39,610 nt of DNA, taken from assembly GCA_017995975.1 (NCBI GenBank), contig JAGOHU010000002.1, positions 1-39,610 of the forward strand, written 5' to 3'. Made by a program: the position numbers and the translations under genes. The notes beneath the pieces are model-generated. The model ran no database searches. It had not been told where the DNA came from and saw nothing but the letters and a program-made list of their open reading frames with translations. Below are positions 4,368 to 22,119 of the stretch, one piece after another (position 1 is the first letter of the stretch; the number at the start of each line of letters is the position of its first letter). Source of the stretch: Negativicutes bacterium (lineage in GTDB: Bacteria > Bacillota > Negativicutes > JAGOZY01).

Positions 4368-4946
4368 CTATTTATCTTTGCTACTGGTGACGATTTTTTC
4401 ACCATGATACTTTTCCCCATCATTATTTGGAAGAAGGCCATAGCGTTCTGCCCAGAGGGTTTTGTATTTTACTGCTTGAGCATGGGTCGAGTCGGTATTT
4501 TCTGGTAAGGTTTTTACGATTTTCCCAGGTACTCCGACCACCAGCGAGAAGGGTGGAACAATCGTACGTGGTGAGACTACTGCACCAGCGGCAACGATGG
4601 TGCCTCGTCCGATGACGGCTCCGTCCAGTACAGTAGAACCCATTCCGATTAGGCAATGATCTTCTACTGTGCAGGCATGGACTGTTGCATTGTGCCCTAC
4701 AGTGACATAATCACCAATGATGGTAGGGTGGCTGTCGGATACATGGACAACTGCATTATCTTGAAGATTGGTATAGCGACCAATTGTTATTTCATTTACA
4801 TCACCTCGGACAATTGCGTTGTACCAGACACTACTAAATTCACCAATGGTGACTTTTCCAAGCACATGAGCTCCCTGAGCAATAAAAACTTTTTCATCTA
4901 TTTGAGGTTTTTTTCCTTCAAATAGGATATCTGTATAGGTAATCAT
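4368..4946 (-). CDS. Gamma-carbonic-anhydrase-like / hexapeptide-repeat (LbH) family protein
   Basis: 192-aa ORF with a GGAGG RBS. It has left-handed beta-helix hexapeptide repeats and conserved His residues (VVHVSD, GHNATVHAC) typical of the YrdA/PaaY gamma-CA family. Confidence 0.8.
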   Translation of the reverse strand: MITYTDILFEGKKPQIDEKVFIAQGAHVLGKVTIGEFSSVWYNAIVRGDVNEITIGRYTNLQDNAVVHVSDSHPTIIGDYVTVGHNATVHACTVEDHCLIGMGSTVLDGAVIGRGTIVAAGAVVSPRTIVPPFSLVVGVPGKIVKTLPENTDSTHAQAVKYKTLWAERYGLLPNNDGEKYHGEKIVTSSKDK

Positions 4947-6533: not shown

Positions 6534-7700
6534 ATGGAATTTAAATGGAACGGCTGCAAAGACTTAAAAGAGTATGTGGTAGGGTTGCGAAGAGAATTTC
6601 ACCAATTTCCAGAGATTAGTGAAGAAGAGGTGAATACATCCAAACGAGTTCAAAAGGAACTAGATTCATTGGGAATCGCTTATGAAGTTTTTCCAAATCA
6701 CTATGGAATTATTGGGAAAATTGAAAATGGGGCTGGGCCAGTGATCGCTTTACGAGCTGATATGGATGCCCTTTCGGTGGTCGAGGAGACAGGTCTTCCT
6801 TTTGAGTCTTGCAATTCGGGAAAAATGCATGCTTGTGGACATGATGGTCATATGTCTATGCTTTTAGGAGCTGCGAAATTGCTGCTACAAAACAAAGATC
6901 AGTGGCAAGGAACAGTTAAACTGCTATTTCAACCAGCAGAGGAGCTGGCTCCAAAAGGGGGAGCTCACTATCTGATTGAGTCTGGTGCGTTAGAAGGAGT
7001 CGATTATATTTTTGGTTGCCATGTTTGGCCTGATTTGGAGGCTGGAAGCGTTGGAATCCGCAAAGGTTATTTGATGGCTTCGTCTGATCGCTTTTGGGTG
7101 ACCTTGAAAGGAAAAGCTTCTCATGCCGCATTGCCTCACCAAGGAGTGGATGCCATTGTGATGGCAGCAGAAGCAATCCAACAAATTTATATGGTACGAG
7201 CTCGTCAAATGGACCCAATTGCACCAGTCACAGTTAATGTAGGAGTCATCCAAGGAGGAAGTCGTTACAATGTGGTACCAGGGGAAGTGAAACTAGAAGG
7301 GACTGTGCGTACTCTTGATGCAGAGATGCGCAACCTTTATCCGGTACGTCTGAAAAGACAATTGGAACATTTGGCGCTAGGCTATGGTGGCGAGGCAATG
7401 TTAGATTATCAATTTGGTTATCCACCACTAAATAATAATGATGGGGCGGTTGATATTTTTGCAGAAGCGGCCTTGGAAGTGCTGGATCAAGAAAAGATCG
7501 ACCTAAATGTAAAGCCTGCTTTGCCGGCAGAAGATTTTTCTTTTTTCTTAGAAAAATGTGCTGGTGCATATTTTTGGTTGGGTTGCAAAAAAGAAGGTAG
7601 TGGGGCTCTTCATAATGGAACCTTTGATATGAGTGAAGAAATCCTGCCTTTAGGTGCAACTTTACTTTTTGAAACGGCCAAGAAAGGGTTAAATAAATAA
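6534..7700 (+). CDS. M20D-family amidohydrolase (N-acyl-L-amino acid amidohydrolase / hippurate hydrolase-like)
   Basis: 388-aa ORF with the metal-binding motif MHACGHDGH and FQPAEE. It lies 23 nt downstream of the DASS permease. Confidence 0.85.
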   Translation: MEFKWNGCKDLKEYVVGLRREFHQFPEISEEEVNTSKRVQKELDSLGIAYEVFPNHYGIIGKIENGAGPVIALRADMDALSVVEETGLPFESCNSGKMHACGHDGHMSMLLGAAKLLLQNKDQWQGTVKLLFQPAEELAPKGGAHYLIESGALEGVDYIFGCHVWPDLEAGSVGIRKGYLMASSDRFWVTLKGKASHAALPHQGVDAIVMAAEAIQQIYMVRARQMDPIAPVTVNVGVIQGGSRYNVVPGEVKLEGTVRTLDAEMRNLYPVRLKRQLEHLALGYGGEAMLDYQFGYPPLNNNDGAVDIFAEAALEVLDQEKIDLNVKPALPAEDFSFFLEKCAGAYFWLGCKKEGSGALHNGTFDMSEEILPLGATLLFETAKKGLNK

Positions 7701-15136: not shown

Positions 15137-16062
15137 CAACTTTCCGCTTCCTTTCCAGCTAATTTTAGATAAACATCTTCCAGATTTCCCGCTCTTTGGA
15201 CCAGATAGGCTGGGTTTAAGCCAGCGCAAATTAAGTTTTTGCGGGCTTCATCGGTGTCTTCTGCATAAAAGAACCAGCGGTCAGAGACCGAAAACCATTC
15301 GCCAGGTAAATGAGCAACACATTCACAGAAAGCTGGAGGCAGGTCGGCCATTTTGATTTCCAGTACTTGAGGCGTGGCATGACGCTGGATCAATTCAGCA
15401 GGAGAACCTTCGTCGAGGATGATTCCATCACTCATGACAGCGATTTGATCACATAGCATGGCTGCTTCTTCCATATAGTGAGTGGTGAGAAGTAAAGTTA
15501 CTCCTTGTTTTTTTAGCTCTTCCAGCTTCTGCCAGACTAATCTTCGAGCCGCCGGGTCTAAGCCGGTAGTAGGTTCGTCGAGAATGACCAATTCGGGATT
15601 TGAAATGAGGGCCCGAGCAATTACTAAGCGTCTTTTTAAGCCACCAGATAGGGAGTCGATGTGCACATCTTCGCGACCTGCCATTCCCATAAATTCAATC
15701 AATTCTTTGCCTCTGCGAGTGGCTTCTTGCTGACTTAGTCCGTAAAAAAGACCAAAATAGGAAAGGTTTTCTAAAGCCGAGAGCTCGTCATCAAGACCAT
15801 CTTCTTGGGTGACTACGCCGATTCGTTGCTTCACTGTTGGTGGAGTGAGTCGGGTGATCTGAGTGCCAAGTACTTCTAAATAGCCACTGGTCACCTCTGC
15901 GAGTCCGGTGATCATTTTCATGGTAGTTGTTTTTCCGGCCCCGTTATGTCCCAAGAAGCCATAGCAGGTATTTGGACTGACTTGAAAAGAAATTCCCTTC
16001 ACAGCTTCGAAAGAGCCATAAGATTTTCTTAAGTCTTTGACAATGATTGGGTATGTTTCCAT
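15136..16062 (-). CDS. ABC transporter ATP-binding protein (DrrA/NatA-like exporter ATPase)
   Basis: Walker A GHNGAGKTT, signature LSGGLKRRLVIARAL, Walker B LVILDEPTTGLD. The start was set at the ATG at 16062, behind AAAAGGAGG. Confidence 0.85.
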   Translation of the reverse strand: METYPIIVKDLRKSYGSFEAVKGISFQVSPNTCYGFLGHNGAGKTTTMKMITGLAEVTSGYLEVLGTQITRLTPPTVKQRIGVVTQEDGLDDELSALENLSYFGLFYGLSQQEATRRGKELIEFMGMAGREDVHIDSLSGGLKRRLVIARALISNPELVILDEPTTGLDPAARRLVWQKLEELKKQGVTLLLTTHYMEEAAMLCDQIAVMSDGIILDEGSPAELIQRHATPQVLEIKMADLPPAFCECVAHLPGEWFSVSDRWFFYAEDTDEARKNLICAGLNPAYLVQRAGNLEDVYLKLAGKEAES

Positions 16063-16380
16063 AGTGCCTCCTTTTAAAATGAGGGATTTTTTTATTGATA
16101 TCAATATGGTTTAGCTTAGAAGGATTAAAAATTTATGTCAACAAAATAAAATAGGAAAAATTCCAGTTTATTGATGAAAAAAGAACTAGGTTTAATCGTT
16201 TTGACGGAGATATAATATCCTTTTTGTATTGTTTTGTTAGAAAATTTGAAAGTAAATTCTTTGATAGAGTTAAATCGGAAGTAAAAAAAATATGAAGATA
16301 AAAAGGAAAATCGGCTAGAATAAAGAATCTGTTAAAGATAAAGTATGTCTAGGTAGACAAAGGAGAAAGGTGAGAAGAAC

Positions 16381-16716
16381 GTGGCAGAAGATAAAAACGA
16401 TATTAAAAATGTGCTAATTACTGATTCATATATAGGAAAGAGAATCATCATCTCGGTGATTATGATCGCTTGCGTGGGGATCGGATACTACGGTCAATAT
16501 GCAGATCCAGCCAATCTAACTTGGATCGGGCGAATCGGTGGCTACTTTAATATGGCTGTATTCCCGCTCTTTTTTCTCTATGGTTATTTTTGGTGGAAAG
16601 GCCGCCAAGAGCGCAAGCGTAAAGATGCGGCAAGAAGAGATGAGATGGAAAGGGAGTACCAACGGAAGGAAGAGCTTGCGAAAGCTCGATCGGAAAAAAA
16701 GGGAACAAAAATATAA
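16381..16716 (+). CDS. Small membrane protein with a highly charged C-terminal tail, function unknown
   Basis: 111-aa ORF with a GTG start after AAAGGAGAAAGG. It has two predicted TM segments and then an RQERKRKDAARRDEMEREYQRKEE tail. It has its own terminator. Confidence 0.5.
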   Translation: MAEDKNDIKNVLITDSYIGKRIIISVIMIACVGIGYYGQYADPANLTWIGRIGGYFNMAVFPLFFLYGYFWWKGRQERKRKDAARRDEMEREYQRKEELAKARSEKKGTKI

Positions 16717-16725
16717 ATTGAATCT

Positions 16726-16756
16726 AAAGATAGACTTGCCAAAGTCTATCTTTTTT
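16726..16756 (+). terminator. Intrinsic terminator
   Basis: Stem GATAGACTT / AAGTCTATC with a GCCA loop, followed by TTTTTT. Confidence 0.8.
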
Positions 16757-16814
16757 GGTAATATCTTATTAAGAATAATCCTAATAAGGAAAAATACTAA
16801 GATGGAGGATAAGG

Positions 16815-17834
16815 ATGAAAAAGGTAGTTGCTGTTTTATTGGTTGCTCTTTCTGTTGTGTCCTGTCGTGAAGCTTCAGCGATGCATGTCATGGAAGGATT
16901 TCTGCCAAGAGGAGAGAGTTTCTTTTGGTTTTTATTAGCCGCTCCAGTTGTTCTGTATGGTTTTTGGAAAATGAAGAAAGAAATTTCCTCTTATCCAGAT
17001 CGTAAGATGTTGTTGGCTTTGGCTGGTGCTTTTATTTTTGTATTATCTGCTTTGAAAATTCCCTCTTTTACTGGGTCAAGTTCCCATCCTACTGGAATTG
17101 GTTTGGCAGCGATTCTATTCGGTCCAGGAGTGGCGGCGGCTTTGTCAGTGATTGTATTGCTTTTTCAGGCTCTTTTATTGGCTCACGGTGGCTTGACTAC
17201 TTTGGGAGCCAATGTATTCTCAATGGGAGTCGTTGGTGGTCTCGTTGGATGGTTGGTTTTCCGTCTTCTAAAGGGAAAAGGTAATAAGCATGAAAAGGTA
17301 GCTGTCTTTTTCGCTGTCGCCCTCAGTGATTGGGCCACTTATATTACTACATCGGTTCAGCTGGCTTGGGCCTTCCCGGATAGCATTAATGGCTTCTATG
17401 GCTCTCTCGTAAAATTCATGAGTATTTTTGCAGTGACCCAGATTCCGCTAGCAATTATTGAAGGACTTTTGGCGGTAGTGGTCTACAATACACTGCTTCA
17501 TTATGGTAGTCAGGGGATTCTATCTCTTTGGTGGCGAGATCAGATGGATCAGGCGGTTTCGTTTTCAAAGCAAAATATGATGATCTTAGTTACTGTGGTT
17601 GGTCTGACAGTTCTGCCCTTGTTCTTTTTAAGAGAAGCAGACTTTGGGGGGGCTGACGGAAAAGCTCAGGATCAAATTCAAGAAATTGCGCCAGATTACG
17701 AACCTTGGTATACTCCAAAGTGGGAGCCAAGTGGTGAGACTGAGAGTTTGATTTTTGCACTACAAGCAGCGATTGGCTCGGGCATTATCTTCTATGCTTT
17801 TGGTTACTGGCGAGGAAAAAAACAAAAGAAATAA
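16815..17834 (+). CDS. cbiMN: Fused CbiM-CbiN cobalt (or Ni) ECF-transporter substrate-capture component
   Basis: A signal-like leader is followed by the CbiM N-terminus MHVMEGFLP and the CbiM core SSSHPTGIGL. The C-terminal ~90 aa carry the CbiN-like pattern (FGGADGKAQD ... EPSGETESLIFALQAAIGSG). Confidence 0.8.
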   Translation: MKKVVAVLLVALSVVSCREASAMHVMEGFLPRGESFFWFLLAAPVVLYGFWKMKKEISSYPDRKMLLALAGAFIFVLSALKIPSFTGSSSHPTGIGLAAILFGPGVAAALSVIVLLFQALLLAHGGLTTLGANVFSMGVVGGLVGWLVFRLLKGKGNKHEKVAVFFAVALSDWATYITTSVQLAWAFPDSINGFYGSLVKFMSIFAVTQIPLAIIEGLLAVVVYNTLLHYGSQGILSLWWRDQMDQAVSFSKQNMMILVTVVGLTVLPLFFLREADFGGADGKAQDQIQEIAPDYEPWYTPKWEPSGETESLIFALQAAIGSGIIFYAFGYWRGKKQKK

Positions 17835-17859
17835 CTTGGATAATAAAAGGAGAAAACTC

Positions 17860-18627
17860 GTGCTAGAATTAGATTATTGGGCCCAGCAAAATCGTTGGCG
17901 AGATATCAGTATTCCAGAAAAGGGCTTCTTATTTTTAGGAGCCCTTATTTTTGCTTTATTTTTGAAAAATCCTTGGATGCTATTTTTTCTCGGACTGAGC
18001 ATACACGGCCTCTTAATTTTTGGCGCTCGAATTCCCTTTTCGTTTTTTAGGCGTTTATGGATTGGGCCTTTACTCTTTTTGATGATTAGTTTGGTGACTA
18101 TTGCGATTTCGGTTGATTCGGATTCAACGAAATTTATCTACTCCTTTTCGATCGGCTCTTGGAATATAGGAGTCACTCTTCAAGGACTTCAGATGAGCAA
18201 GACCTTGTTCTTTCGAGCTTTTGCTTCGATTTCTTGTTTATTCGGTTTAGCTAGTACAACTCCTGCGTCTTATGGAGCTGCTTGGCTATCCAGATTTTCT
18301 TGGCTCCGGCCTTTAGCTGAGATTGGTCTGCTGACCTATCGATTTATCTTTATCACCTTTGCAACCTCTGGGCAAATTTATAAGGCTCAGCAATCTCGCT
18401 TGGGCTATCAAAATATGAAAAAGTCTGTCCGCTCTATTTCATTATTGGCTGCCAATTTAGGGCTTAAAAGCTTTTTGTCGGTTCGAGCGGTCTACTCGGC
18501 CTTGATCTCTCGTTGCTATCAAGAGCAACTTTCTTATCGGTATCCAGATTATCCTTTTTCAGGAAAGCGACTTTTTTTAATTAGTTTTTATTTAGGATTT
18601 TTTGCTGTAGGAGTGTGGCTGCAATGA
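17860..18627 (+). CDS. cbiQ: ECF transporter transmembrane (T) component CbiQ
   Basis: Polytopic ORF with a GTG start at 17860 after AAGGAG. It sits between cbiMN and cbiO and has a CbiQ-like ARG-rich loop (YKAQQSRLGY). Confidence 0.75.
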   Translation: MLELDYWAQQNRWRDISIPEKGFLFLGALIFALFLKNPWMLFFLGLSIHGLLIFGARIPFSFFRRLWIGPLLFLMISLVTIAISVDSDSTKFIYSFSIGSWNIGVTLQGLQMSKTLFFRAFASISCLFGLASTTPASYGAAWLSRFSWLRPLAEIGLLTYRFIFITFATSGQIYKAQQSRLGYQNMKKSVRSISLLAANLGLKSFLSVRAVYSALISRCYQEQLSYRYPDYPFSGKRLFLISFYLGFFAVGVWLQ

Positions 18628-19460
18628 GTGAGTCTCGAAAGATTATTCTGGAAATTGAGGACCTAGATTATTATTATCGATCCGATCGAAAAATCTTAGA
18701 AAATCTATCCTTGAAGGTAGAAAAAGGAACCCGAAATGTATTGCTTGGCTCTAATGGTGCTGGCAAATCAACCCTGTTCTTTCTGTTAAATGGAGTCTAT
18801 GAGCCTCGAAAGGGAAAGATATCTTTTGAAGGGCAAGAATATAACTATAGCCATAAAGGGAATAATTTTATTCGTCAGAAAGTGGGACTGGTGTTCCAGG
18901 ACCCAGATGTACAACTTTTTGCAAGCACTGTATTAGATGATGTTATCTTTGGCCCGATGAACTTAGGAATGGCTCTGCCAGAGGCAGAAGCGAAAGCTCG
19001 CTGGGCTTTGAAAGAAGTGGGCCTTGAGGCTTACGAAAATGAAGCTCCTCATATATTGAGTCATGGTCAAAAGAAGCGAGTTGCTATTGCGGGGGTACTT
19101 GCAATGGATCCGGAGATTATTTTGATGGATGAGCCTACAGCTGGATTGGATTTTGAAGGTACCGAATTATTAAATCATATTATTGATCGGCTAACCGCAC
19201 AAGGCAAGACTTTGTTGATCTCTACTCATGAGACGGATTGGGCATTAGGATGGGCCGATTATGTTTATGTCTTGGCAAATGAAAAAATTGCGGCCGAAGG
19301 GAAACCGGAGGAAATTTTAGGAAGCAAAAATTATCGAGAATTGGGCTTTGGTCAACCAATTCTTATTCGTATTTTTAAAGAATTATGGCAAAATACCTCG
19401 CAAGGCGGCCTGAAAACGATTGAAGGATTTGTTGAAAAATTGCGAAAAAAAGAATTTTAA
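18624..19460 (+). CDS. cbiO: ECF transporter ATPase CbiO
   Basis: ATGA overlap with the cbiQ stop. Walker A GSNGAGKST, Q-loop, signature LSHGQKKRVAIAGVL, Walker B ILMDEPTAGLD. Confidence 0.85.
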   Translation: MSESRKIILEIEDLDYYYRSDRKILENLSLKVEKGTRNVLLGSNGAGKSTLFFLLNGVYEPRKGKISFEGQEYNYSHKGNNFIRQKVGLVFQDPDVQLFASTVLDDVIFGPMNLGMALPEAEAKARWALKEVGLEAYENEAPHILSHGQKKRVAIAGVLAMDPEIILMDEPTAGLDFEGTELLNHIIDRLTAQGKTLLISTHETDWALGWADYVYVLANEKIAAEGKPEEILGSKNYRELGFGQPILIRIFKELWQNTSQGGLKTIEGFVEKLRKKEF

Positions 19461-19503
19461 AGAATGTATTTGTCAGAAAGACAGGCGGAGGGATATTTTC
19501 TAC

Positions 19504-19595
19504 TTATCCACAGGGAACTATGGTTATACACATAGTTCCGCACAGGAAAAGCTAGAAAAAGAGAGATATTCACAAAGTTATCCACACTATCCACA
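19504..19595 (+). promoter_or_regulatory. Cluster of DnaA-box consensus 9-mers
   Basis: TTATCCACA is perfect at 19504-19512 and 19578-19586. One-mismatch boxes are TTATACACA (19524-19532) and CTATCCACA (19587-19595). All are in the same orientation in the cbiO-cbiK spacer. Confidence 0.5.
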
Positions 19596-19658
19596 ATTGT
19601 CGAATGAATTTCCATGGAAGAATTCCACAGAAAAAAATGAAAAAAGGAGATGGATTTT

Positions 19659-20465
19659 ATGACGAAGAAGGGGATTGTGATCGTAAGTTTTGGAACTTCT
19701 TTTCCAGATGCAATTAAACGAGCAATCGAGCCTACGGAAAAAGTATTTTCGGAAACCTTTCCGGATTTTAAAATTTACGGTACTTTTACTTCGAAGCAGA
19801 TTCGGTCTAAAATTGTGAGTCGTGGTGAAATTGCGCCTTTGAGTCCAGAAGAGGTTTTTAATCAACTAAAACTGGATGGGGTCCAACAAGTGCTGGTTCA
19901 ACCTCTACAGTTTGTACCAGGAGAAGAGTATCGAAAAGTCAAAGAATTGGTAACTCGTTTGAGTCAGGAGAAGTTTTTCGATTCGATTCAAATGGGGAGA
20001 ACGTTACTTCACTTTAATGGACAAGAAGATAAGCCGGATGACTTTGAAGAAGTGATTGGCTATTTGAATCAAGTGATGCCGACTTTAGGCAAAACCGAGG
20101 GGTTGATCTGGATGGGTCATGGGTCCCCGGAAGCAGCCAATGTGGCTTATGAATTGCTCGGGTATCGACTGAGGGATAATAATAAGCAGGTCTTTTTGGC
20201 CAATGTAGAAGGCGGGCCTTCCATTGAGGATATCCTACCAAAACTCAAGCAAAGTGGGCTGACTAAATTTCATTTAGCTCCTTTGATGTGGGTGGCTGGA
20301 GATCATGCTCTCAATGATATGGCAGGAGAAGAAGAGGAGTCTTGGAAGTCCATCTTAGAAAAAGCAGGCTTTCAAGTAGAGTGTCATCTAAAAGGTCTGG
20401 GTGAATGGCCGATGATGAGAGAAATATTTATTCGCCGAGCTCAGGCAGAATTAGATAAAAATTAG
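19659..20465 (+). CDS. cbiK: Sirohydrochlorin cobaltochelatase CbiK (anaerobic pathway)
   Basis: The N-terminus KGIVIVSFGTSFPDA and the catalytic-His region WMGHGSPEAAN match CbiK. The ATG at 19659 is preferred on spacing from AAGGAGA. Confidence 0.8.
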   Translation: MTKKGIVIVSFGTSFPDAIKRAIEPTEKVFSETFPDFKIYGTFTSKQIRSKIVSRGEIAPLSPEEVFNQLKLDGVQQVLVQPLQFVPGEEYRKVKELVTRLSQEKFFDSIQMGRTLLHFNGQEDKPDDFEEVIGYLNQVMPTLGKTEGLIWMGHGSPEAANVAYELLGYRLRDNNKQVFLANVEGGPSIEDILPKLKQSGLTKFHLAPLMWVAGDHALNDMAGEEEESWKSILEKAGFQVECHLKGLGEWPMMREIFIRRAQAELDKN

Positions 20466-20491
20466 GTTTTAGGACAGGGAAGAGGAAAATT

Positions 20492-21295
20492 TTGGAAAAT
20501 CAGGTATTATTTGCTTTTGGGTTGGCACTTTTTGCAGCCTTAGCAATGGGAATCGGTAGTTTATTAGCTTTTGTGATTCGTCGGGATCAAACTCAGTGGT
20601 TATCCCTTGGATTAGGTTTTTCTGGGGGGGTTATGCTTTATGTAGCTTTAATGGATTTATTGCCGGAAGCGGTTGAAGCTTTATCAGAATTTGATGATAT
20701 CAATCCTTATTTATGGGGACTTGGTGCATTTGTAGTAGGTATGGTCTGTTATGCATTACTTGAAGGACTTGTTTTGCATGGGGCTCATTCTCATGCAGTA
20801 CATCCAGCAGAACAAGGAAAAGAAGGGCGTCAGTTAAAAATTGCAAAAATGGGTTTTTTAGCAGCCATTTCAATTGCTGGGCATAATATTGTCGAAGGGA
20901 TGGCAATCTTTATGGGAGGAATTCAGGGAGTGGATACTGGGCTTGCCATTGCAAGTGCAGTGGCTCTTCATAATATTCCTGTCGGCATTGCCGTGGCGAT
21001 CCCTCTGTATTTAACAACAGGTAGTCGTTGGAAGGCTTTCTTGCTCTCCATGGCAGTGGGGATGGGAGAATTTGTGGGAGCCTTATTGGCCTATTTCCTT
21101 CTCTATCCTTGGTTGACCGACCAAAGCTTAGCTGTACTCTTTGCGATTGTAGCAGGTATGATGGTTATGATTACTTTGGATGAGATCCTGCCAGCGGCTC
21201 AGGAATATGGTCAATCTCGCTGGGTCATGTATGGAATTATTTTAGGGATGAGTGTCTTTGCTATGCTTAGTGTGGTTTTGGGGCATCATCATTAA
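20492..21295 (+). CDS. zupT: ZIP-family divalent metal transporter (ZupT-like), copy 1
   Basis: TTG start. Eight-TM pattern with the ZIP motifs GHNIVEGMA and ALHNIPVGIAVA, and a His-rich loop HGAHSHAVHP. Confidence 0.75.
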   Translation: MENQVLFAFGLALFAALAMGIGSLLAFVIRRDQTQWLSLGLGFSGGVMLYVALMDLLPEAVEALSEFDDINPYLWGLGAFVVGMVCYALLEGLVLHGAHSHAVHPAEQGKEGRQLKIAKMGFLAAISIAGHNIVEGMAIFMGGIQGVDTGLAIASAVALHNIPVGIAVAIPLYLTTGSRWKAFLLSMAVGMGEFVGALLAYFLLYPWLTDQSLAVLFAIVAGMMVMITLDEILPAAQEYGQSRWVMYGIILGMSVFAMLSVVLGHHH

Positions 21296-21321
21296 GGGTT
21301 GGATTGAAAGGAGAGAGTCAG

Positions 21322-22119
21322 ATGAATGAATCAGTTCTTTTTGCATTAGGGCTTTCTTTGCTTGCTGGTCTGGCGACCGGGGTAGGGAGCTTGATTGCTT
21401 TTATCACTCATCGCACTCAGACCTCGGTTCTTTCGATTGGGTTAGGCTTTTCAGGCGGGGTTATGATCTACGTTTCCTTTATGGAACTTTTTCCAAGCGG
21501 ATTGGAAGTGATTCAACGATTTATGCCTGGCAAAGAAGGTCAATTATGGGGAATTGCTGCTTTTTTTGGGGGGATGGCATTCTTTTCTTTGATTGACCGC
21601 TTGCTCCCAGAAGAGACCAATCCTCATGAAGCTCATAGGGTGGAAGAAATGGACGAAAAAGAGAATCATCATCGGCTTCAGCGGATGGGGATTTTTACTG
21701 CCTTAGCTGTAGCAATTCATAATTTCCCCGAAGGGATGGCTACTTTTGTGGCAGCTTTAGAGAATCCCGAGATTGGAATTGCAGTAGCTGGCGCAGTGGC
21801 GCTTCACAATATCCCCGAAGGGATTGCAGTAGCGATTCCGATCTATTTTGCTACAGGTAGTCGCTTGAAAGCCTTTTCTTATTCTTTCTTGTCTGGGTTG
21901 GCTGAGCCACTCGGAGCATTGGTTGGCTATTTATTATTGAGCCCTTGGCTCGGAGGGATTGGCATCGGATTTATGTTTGCCGGGATTGCAGGCATGATGG
22001 TAATGATTTCTTTAGACGAGCTTTTACCCGCTGCGAGAGAATACGGAGAGCCTCATAAGGCCATGTATGGTCTTGCGGCAGGGATGCTGGTGATGGCCAT
22101 TGGGTTGGTTTATCTCTAA
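21322..22119 (+). CDS. ZIP-family divalent metal transporter (ZupT-like), copy 2
   Basis: ATG after AAAGGAGAG. Motifs IHNFPEGMA and ALHNIPEGIAVA, with a His/Glu-rich loop NPHEAHRVEEMDEKENHH. Confidence 0.75.
   Translation: MNESVLFALGLSLLAGLATGVGSLIAFITHRTQTSVLSIGLGFSGGVMIYVSFMELFPSGLEVIQRFMPGKEGQLWGIAAFFGGMAFFSLIDRLLPEETNPHEAHRVEEMDEKENHHRLQRMGIFTALAVAIHNFPEGMATFVAALENPEIGIAVAGAVALHNIPEGIAVAIPIYFATGSRLKAFSYSFLSGLAEPLGALVGYLLLSPWLGGIGIGFMFAGIAGMMVMISLDELLPAAREYGEPHKAMYGLAAGMLVMAIGLVYL

Follow-up and report, generated by a model that had tools for sequence, protein, structure and literature searches.

A conserved array of DnaA-box-like sites directly upstream of cbiK-zupT in an uncultured Negativicutes bacterium and its relatives: a candidate non-origin DnaA operator

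The window, which is the whole stretch of DNA analysed here (39,610 nucleotides, 39.6 kb), derives from an uncultured Negativicutes bacterium whose sequence source was wastewater metagenomes. It encodes an ECF cobalt transporter (cbiMNQO), followed by a cobaltochelatase gene (cbiK) and genes for ZupT/ZIP transporters. Matches to Pfam and NCBIfam families showed that the gene calls made around the cbiO-cbiK spacer in a preliminary description of this DNA (cbiO, cbiK, ZIP) were correct. The start codon of cbiK is located at 19650 or, more probably, at a second ATG at 19659, 10 nt past a GGAG motif. Two ZupT/ZIP paralogues occur in tandem in the window (20492-21295 and 21304-22119), as opposed to one in related loci. 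CbiM (residues 24-230) and CbiN (residues 254-319) are fused in a single 339-aa ORF and are encoded by separate genes in three relatives (L006, L008, and L013). Further upstream, the product of a small ORF (16381-16716) is a membrane protein of two helices that carries an invariant FWWKGxQER motif and for which no Pfam or NCBIfam match was found. In seven of the eight lineages compared, a small two-helix ORF of this kind (43-49% identity) directly precedes the cbiMNQO / cbiK-zupT module; the contig of the remaining one (L005) stops short of that position.

The features at the locus are given below. Box scores were calculated with a frequency table of DnaA boxes that had been derived experimentally for B. 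subtilis (PMC4447404, S3 Table).

16815-19460, + strand: cbiMN (fused, 16815-17834), cbiQ, and cbiO, the upstream genes; cbiO ends at 19460
19470-19499, + strand: weak candidate promoter of sigma-70 type (TTGTCA, 16 or 18 nt, GATATT or TATTTT), with its end just 5' of box 1
19504-19629 (126 bp), + strand: array of six conserved DnaA-box slots, directly 5' of cbiK-zupT
19504-19512, + strand: box 1, TTATCCACA, perfect consensus, with the maximum PSSM score of 13.7
19524-19532, + strand: box 2, TTATACACA, 20 bp past box 1, fits TTATNCACA, score 11.0
19536-19544, + strand: box 3, TTCCGCACA, 12 bp past box 2, weak in the window, score 3.5
19566-19574, + strand: extra box-like 9-mer, ATATTCACA, score 10.2 in the window, no conserved slot
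19578-19595, + strand: abutting tandem pair of box 5, TTATCCACA (19578-19586), and box 6, CTATCCACA (19587-19595), in a 9-bp register
19613-19621, - strand: degenerate inverted copy, CATGGAAGA on the + strand and TCTTCCATG on the - strand
19621-19629, + strand: last box (box 8), AATTCCACA, score 6.1, 34 bp past box 6 and 38 bp short of the probable start of cbiK
19650-22119, + strand: cbiK and two ZupT/ZIP paralogues, by Pfam and NCBIfam matches

The seven 9-mers that had been listed for the spacer in the preliminary description were all found at their coordinates and in a single orientation (+ strand). Three of these had been called weak boxes. Two of the three, at 19536 and 19621, occupy conserved slots and score higher in most relatives than in the window, whereas the third (19566-19574) proved to be lineage-specific, its counterpart being ATTTTCACA in L005 and of the TTTTTAAAA type in every distant relative. 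At the box 3 position, scores in relatives ranged from 5.5 to 12.7 (at least 8.0 except in L005), at an identical offset of 32 bp from box 1. The last box reads AAATCCACA or ATTTCCACA in relatives, with scores of 8.5 to 9.2, and was lost in L006. The box 1 slot showed 96% identity over the eight lineages, and the tandem pair of boxes 5 and 6 was present in all eight, with box 5 invariant at eight of its nine positions. Box 2 is replaced at the same offset by TTATGCACA, TTTTCCACA, TTGTCCACG, or TTGTCCCCA, which indicated that most of its variation resides at positions tolerated by DnaA. The counterpart of the inverted copy is TGTGGAAGA in L006 and L008, as against TTGGATAAG in L013, and in L017 and L018 it is placed 3' rather than 5' of the last box; a TGGA...TCCA inverted repeat around the last box was nevertheless found in every lineage. 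Directly 3' of box 6, the window carries the motif TGTCGAA (19598-19604), whose sequence equals the core of a Spo0A box. Its counterparts are TGTCTAA in L005, TGTAGAA in L008, and TGTCAAA in L014, and it is absent from L006, L013, L017, and L018.

Over the window as a whole, sites with at most one mismatch to TTATCCACA were not enriched (14 observed versus 10 expected). Four of these 14 sites were packed within 92 bp, and the same 92 bp of the spacer contained five sites with at most one mismatch to TTATNCACA. Among 300 simulated versions of the window (first-order Markov model), none had more than two near-consensus sites in its densest 100 bp. The Poisson probability of encountering at least four sites was approximately 1.7e-8, or approximately 1e-5 once corrected for position. 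These results exclude a chance origin of the cluster, which the preliminary description had considered very unlikely. When the window was scored with the B. subtilis DnaA matrix, the array was the top 130-bp segment, with a summed score of 66.3 from six sites and a runner-up of 28.3. The proposed check for similar densities elsewhere yielded nothing comparable: in 114 kb, comprising the window and related loci, clusters of at least three boxes per 130 bp occurred at the array only.

A search with CbiK against GTDB genomes returned a single relative, a Negativicutes MAG with a CbiK that was 56% identical. The array was present in all of the contigs examined, which encoded CbiK homologues with 99, 88, 59, 57, 55, 50, 47, and 44% identity. 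Across eight lineages (CbiK 44-88% identical), the six slots were kept in both position and orientation, so that the boxes passed the conservation check in orthologous spacers that had been suggested earlier. Seven lineages shared offsets from box 1 of 0, 20, 32, 73-74, 82-83, and 116-117 bp. L013, whose sequence is that of L001, is the exception: 10 bp inserted between boxes 3 and 5 shift its later offsets to 84, 93, and 128 bp. Every slot offset lies within approximately 1.5 bp of a whole number of 10.5-bp helical turns, and the indel in L013, the only large one, corresponds to one turn. This helical phasing, together with the one-turn indel, suggests that proteins are positioned on one face of duplex DNA. 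Column identity amounted to 89% in the slots, 69% between the boxes, and 57% in the flanks (permutation p < 5e-5, for eight lineages that are related and therefore not independent samples). The distance from the last box to the cbiK ATG was 32-40 bp, with a fixed orientation, in all lineages. Judged by this conservation, the array is a real, functional, and conserved DNA element. The L013 sequence showed a further peculiarity (4475-4515), in that CCACA has become CCCCA in boxes 1, 2, and 3 and is intact in boxes 5, 6, and 8. The 10-bp insertion is located past box 3, and no model explains the three parallel A-to-C changes.

Two other explanations for the conservation of the spacer were rejected. 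A small coding ORF (80 aa, 19420-19662) is not conserved as an open frame: with indels of 1 and 10 bp, no frame was free of stops in all lineages. A structured cis-regulatory RNA was equally dismissed. An Rfam scan of the window at gathering thresholds detected nothing in the spacer and only a cobalamin riboswitch elsewhere, a permissive scan (E <= 5) of 16000-19750 yielded nothing credible, and RNAalifold found no conserved base pairs in eight sequences. A hairpin between boxes 1 and 3 (GGAACTATG...CATAGTTCC) is not kept in relatives, and the presence of six sense-strand copies with a single antisense partner makes a shared fold impossible. The same data bear on the idea that the repeats act in the transcript, either because a protein reads UCCACA in the cbiK leader or because the mRNA is stabilised or masked by a hairpin at the last box. 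In favour of this idea, the boxes lie without exception on the sense strand, and transcription may extend over them, given the lack of a terminator after cbiO and a candidate promoter that ends at box 1; the window sequence alone folds somewhat better than shuffled versions (z = -2.0); and the inverted repeat always includes the last box. Against these points stand the lack of conserved pairing and of an Rfam match, the imbalance between sense and antisense copies, the helical phasing and 10-bp indel, which favour duplex DNA, and the fact that the motif is a well-known DNA site. We therefore regard an action in the transcript as highly improbable.

Gene context indicated which of the flanking genes the array belongs to. 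In every lineage that carries the array, a cbiK-zupT pair is located 3' of it. In L014-L018, which are devoid of cbiMNQO, the array is retained between the small two-helix membrane ORF and cbiK-zupT. Its persistence in these loci ties the element to cbiK-zupT, not to the junction of cbiO with cbiK. The initial description as an element of the cbiO-cbiK spacer is refined in this respect. L014, L017, and L018 carry cbiK-zupT without any other cbi gene nearby.

The window contains a cobalamin riboswitch (RF00174, 22183-22368, 93.8 bits), followed by cbiL, cbiD, cbiE, and cbiT. It precedes only these four genes, which leaves cbiK, the ZIP transporters, and the ECF cobalt transporter outside its control. 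In relatives, too, the riboswitch was found only before cbiL onward. In an outgroup with a 43% identical CbiK (L020), a classical cbi operon headed by cbiK is situated behind a cobalamin riboswitch and lacks the boxes. From the position of the riboswitch in the window and relatives, combined with riboswitch-led cbiK in the outgroup, it follows that the array holds the regulatory position before cbiK in this clade.

Evidence on the identity of the ligand came from the boxes themselves. Base counts over the 48 slot instances correlated closely with the B. subtilis DnaA matrix (r = 0.955). Agreement extended to the tolerated alternatives, with A, G, or T at position 3, a free position 5, and C as the commonest base other than A at position 7. 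Positions 6, 8, and 9 were nearly fixed, while position 5 differed among slots. The CCCCA variants of L013 match the preference of this matrix for C at position 7. The exact abutting pair TTATCCACnnTATCCACA was encountered at more than 120 metagenome loci at the least. Among 114 ORFs flanking the listed matches to this pair, 15 belonged to the DnaB_2/DnaD family, 5 were DnaA, and 2 were DnaN. One of the contigs (L099) contains a dnaA-dnaN spacer with 12 boxes and another (L048) a region upstream of dnaA with 20. The pair also recurs in arrays flanked by a Mur-ligase gene and a dnaD-like gene, and the metagenome comparator arrays share 9-bp and 12-bp spacings with the cbiK array. No cbiK loci were present among the listed metagenome matches to the tandem pair. 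Slot variation that mirrors the DnaA matrix and the occurrence of the same pair beside dnaA, dnaN, and dnaD genes strengthen the interpretation that DnaA is the ligand. The preliminary description had proposed either a DnaA titration or regulatory site or a site for another factor that recognises CCACA(G); box match, specificity, and conservation lend partial support to the former, with DnaA as the presumed binder. A literature search for DnaA in connection with cbiK, cobalamin, or Negativicutes retrieved nothing on point.

The metagenome matches yielded observations beyond the cbiK locus. Spacers between Mur-ligase and DnaB_2/DnaD-family genes in five gut-metagenome Firmicute contigs (L031, 4552-4678; L038, 6151-6245; L046, 5277-5403; L062, 7796-7934; L091, 3027-3200) contain two abutting TTATCCACA pairs that are co-oriented with the downstream gene; in many cases a third box follows at a distance of 12 bp and an inverted box is situated between the pairs. 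These arrays look like a widespread predicted DnaA operator on a helicase-loader gene. A further contig (L090) carries 12 boxes around position 6682. Among the listed matches, the tandem pair was also situated beside genes for MgtC, hpf (S30AE, 8 ORFs), NlpC/P60 (7), MatE (3), and TsaD/gcp (2). Its occurrence beside such non-replication genes suggests that lineage-specific non-origin DnaA-box clusters are common in metagenomes.

A cis element confined to a single operon is more usually bound by a dedicated regulator, which counts against a DnaA operator. The sites might be read by another DNA-binding protein with DnaA-box-like specificity, either a metal- or B12-responsive regulator or a protein with a DnaA-domain-IV-like fold, encoded elsewhere. 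Such a protein would explain why the element is specific to one metal-handling operon and occupies the place of the outgroup's riboswitch. The TGGA...TCCA palindrome is kept even though its inverted arm swaps sides, as would be expected for a dimeric operator, and the concerted change from CCACA to CCCCA in three boxes of L013 points in the same direction. However, a shifted specificity should alter all boxes, and boxes 5, 6, and 8 of L013 are unchanged. DnaA specificity is, moreover, matched position by position, beyond a shared core, and the abutting 9-bp register is that of genuine origins and replication genes. No regulator gene was found in the 39.6-kb window, which fits a factor encoded elsewhere; a linked candidate regulator was lacking at all eight loci, which counts against a dedicated protein. 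Among known regulators, the 11-bp direct repeats of CarH type, the 9-bp repeats of LytTR proteins, and the boxes of Fur, Zur, NikR, and NrdR presumably do not fit in spacing or symmetry. On this evidence, a protein other than DnaA is an unlikely reader of the array.

The window was inspected for features of an origin of replication. As noted in the preliminary description, no replication gene is located near the array; neither dnaA, dnaN, nor any other initiation gene was found in the entire 39.6 kb. GC skew was positive along nearly the whole window, with a marginal dip (-0.03) near 35-37 kb, and showed no sign switch at or near the array. For DnaA-trios, the criterion was a minimum of three, no more than 16 bp from the proximal box. 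The longest run 3' of the tandem pair comprised two trios in the window and L005 and at most three in most lineages. Runs of 4-5 trio-like elements in L017 and L018 consisted of T tracts and carry no weight, since random sequence reaches at least three trios in approximately 32% of trials. With no trio run, dnaA/dnaN genes, or skew switch, a chromosomal origin or basal unwinding system was rejected.

DnaA could nevertheless bind the array in a role in replication control, as a sink or modulator similar to datA or DnaA-box clusters, with any effect on cbiK-zupT incidental. All evidence for DnaA as the ligand applies equally to this interpretation, the boxes could not be related to a defined promoter position, and some B. 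subtilis clusters restrain initiation without clear roles for the neighbouring genes (PMC3245932). A sink would, however, hardly account for the fixed orientation and the narrow distance between the last box and the ATG (32-40 bp) in all lineages, nor for the way in which the array tracks cbiK-zupT when its upstream neighbour changes. Six sites would, furthermore, make a small sink, and the 39.6 kb contain no origin feature. A primary role in replication control thus appears improbable.

Upstream of cbiMNQO, a canonical cbiM promoter was found at 16736-16764 (TTGCCA, 17 nt, TAATAT preceded by TG). Within 16719-16764, a terminator-like hairpin with a T run (AAGATAGACTT...AAGTCTATCTT), located past the small ORF, overlaps the -35 element of this promoter. 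The cbiMNQO genes are not preceded by a riboswitch. No terminator was detected 3' of cbiO, so that, with the canonical cbiM promoter upstream, the array is probably transcribed through. The candidate promoter at 19470-19499 showed 9 of 12 consensus matches, and similar elements are present in L005 and L008 and not in all lineages. A second candidate at 19569-19597, also with 9 of 12 matches, has -35 and -10 elements that straddle boxes 5 and 6. Neither a consensus scan nor inspection of the array and its surroundings revealed a convincing sigma-70 promoter shared by all lineages. In one metatranscriptome, two low-depth 151-nt contigs mapped within cbiK and none over the spacer.

From these sequence comparisons, we estimate an approximately even chance that the array is a non-origin DnaA array on double-stranded DNA that serves as an operator for cbiK-zupT. 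In the corresponding mechanism, domain IV of DnaA would occupy the strong boxes 1, 2, 5, and 6, after which ATP-DnaA would oligomerise cooperatively across the weaker, in-phase boxes 3 and 8 and the inverted copy. The resulting complex, which possibly bridges the upstream trio of boxes and the tandem pair, would span 150 bp directly before the cbiK ribosome-binding site. DnaA bound in this manner would be an obstacle to RNA polymerase, in that it would occlude an internal promoter or stop read-through from cbiMNQO. Cobalt chelation and uptake would thereby track the status of replication initiation, and some titration of DnaA would be a by-product. DnaA occupancy, promoter position, and the choice between repression and activation are inferred from sequence, with repression as the simplest model. 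A speculative rationale, by analogy with DnaA control of nrdAB, would be the need of B12 for nucleotide reduction (PMC8203912). It is conceivable, though rather doubtful, that DnaA directly gates cbiK-zupT in replacement of the B12-riboswitch control seen in the outgroup, perhaps feeding B12-dependent dNTP synthesis, and that it thus constitutes an undescribed branch of the DnaA regulon.

DnaA is best known as the initiator of replication. Its role as a transcription factor has been mapped in few model species, in which its targets are mostly cell-cycle or nucleotide-supply genes. If DnaA does act on cbiK-zupT, its regulon would come to include the homeostasis of metals and cofactors in a little-studied lineage of diderm Firmicutes. 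With an upstream trio, a four-turn gap, an abutting pair, and a proximal inverted pair, the array could provide a compact natural template for non-origin DnaA assembly. If another protein reads the sites, a regulator that mimics the specificity of DnaA would also be of interest.

In B. subtilis, non-origin DnaA-box clusters have been described at sda, ywlC, yydA, ywcI-vpr, gcp-ydiF, and thdF-jag; the genes beside them can be repressed or activated by DnaA, and the clusters may also act as sinks for the protein (PMC3245932; PMC4447404). The cbiK array resembles these clusters in comprising several consensus or near-consensus boxes in an intergenic position away from dnaA. It differs from them in being smaller (six slots in 126 bp), in being predicted from sequence, and in preceding metal and cofactor genes rather than cell-cycle genes or genes of unknown function. 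In relatives of B. subtilis, non-origin clusters are reported to precede different genes in different species (PMC3245932), whereas the cbiK array keeps the same operon across deep divergence, a difference that counts against its interpretation as a DnaA operator.

Promoters known to be controlled by DnaA include that of dnaA itself, which is autoregulated, and those of the nucleotide-supply genes nrdAB and guaBA in E. coli. At such promoters, strong boxes nucleate binding and weaker sites for ATP-DnaA tune it, which ties replication status to substrate supply (PMC8203912). The cbiK array shares with them a set of boxes of mixed strength near a gene start, while its targets, a cobaltochelatase and ZIP transporters, are unlike dnaA, nrdAB, and guaBA.

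In origins of replication, the commonest arrangement is that of tandem boxes of which the upstream one is nearer to consensus (PMC8287927). For incC of B. subtilis oriC, helical phasing is reported, along with a requirement for 44 bp or more between the distal box and the tandem pair 3' of it (PMC6669920). The cbiK array likewise combines a tandem pair with in-phase upstream boxes, across a gap of 41-42 bp (52 bp in L013), and the upstream member of its tandem pair is closer to consensus, as in incC and the basal unwinding system of B. subtilis. Unlike oriC, it has no DnaA-trios, AT-rich unwinding element, dnaA/dnaN genes, or skew switch. With the box module present and the unwinding features absent, the cbiK array resembles an origin minus its unwinding half.

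The murC-dnaD-like arrays (L031, L038, L046, L062, and L091) share with the cbiK array an abutting pair, boxes co-oriented with the downstream gene, and an inverted box nearby. They are followed by clear promoters with TG-extended -10 elements 60-90 bp downstream, whereas the cbiK array ends 20 bp before the ribosome-binding site, and they precede a replication-initiation gene rather than metal genes. The datA and DARS loci of E. coli type combine a box cluster with a site for IHF or Fis; they promote hydrolysis of DnaA-bound ATP or nucleotide exchange and are defined by that activity.

The cobalamin riboswitch (RF00174) offers a comparison of position rather than of mechanism. In the cbiK leader, the array occupies the place that the riboswitch holds in the outgroup L020, although, unlike the riboswitch, it lacks both a conserved RNA structure and an Rfam match. 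The array appears to replace riboswitch control for cbiK-zupT only.
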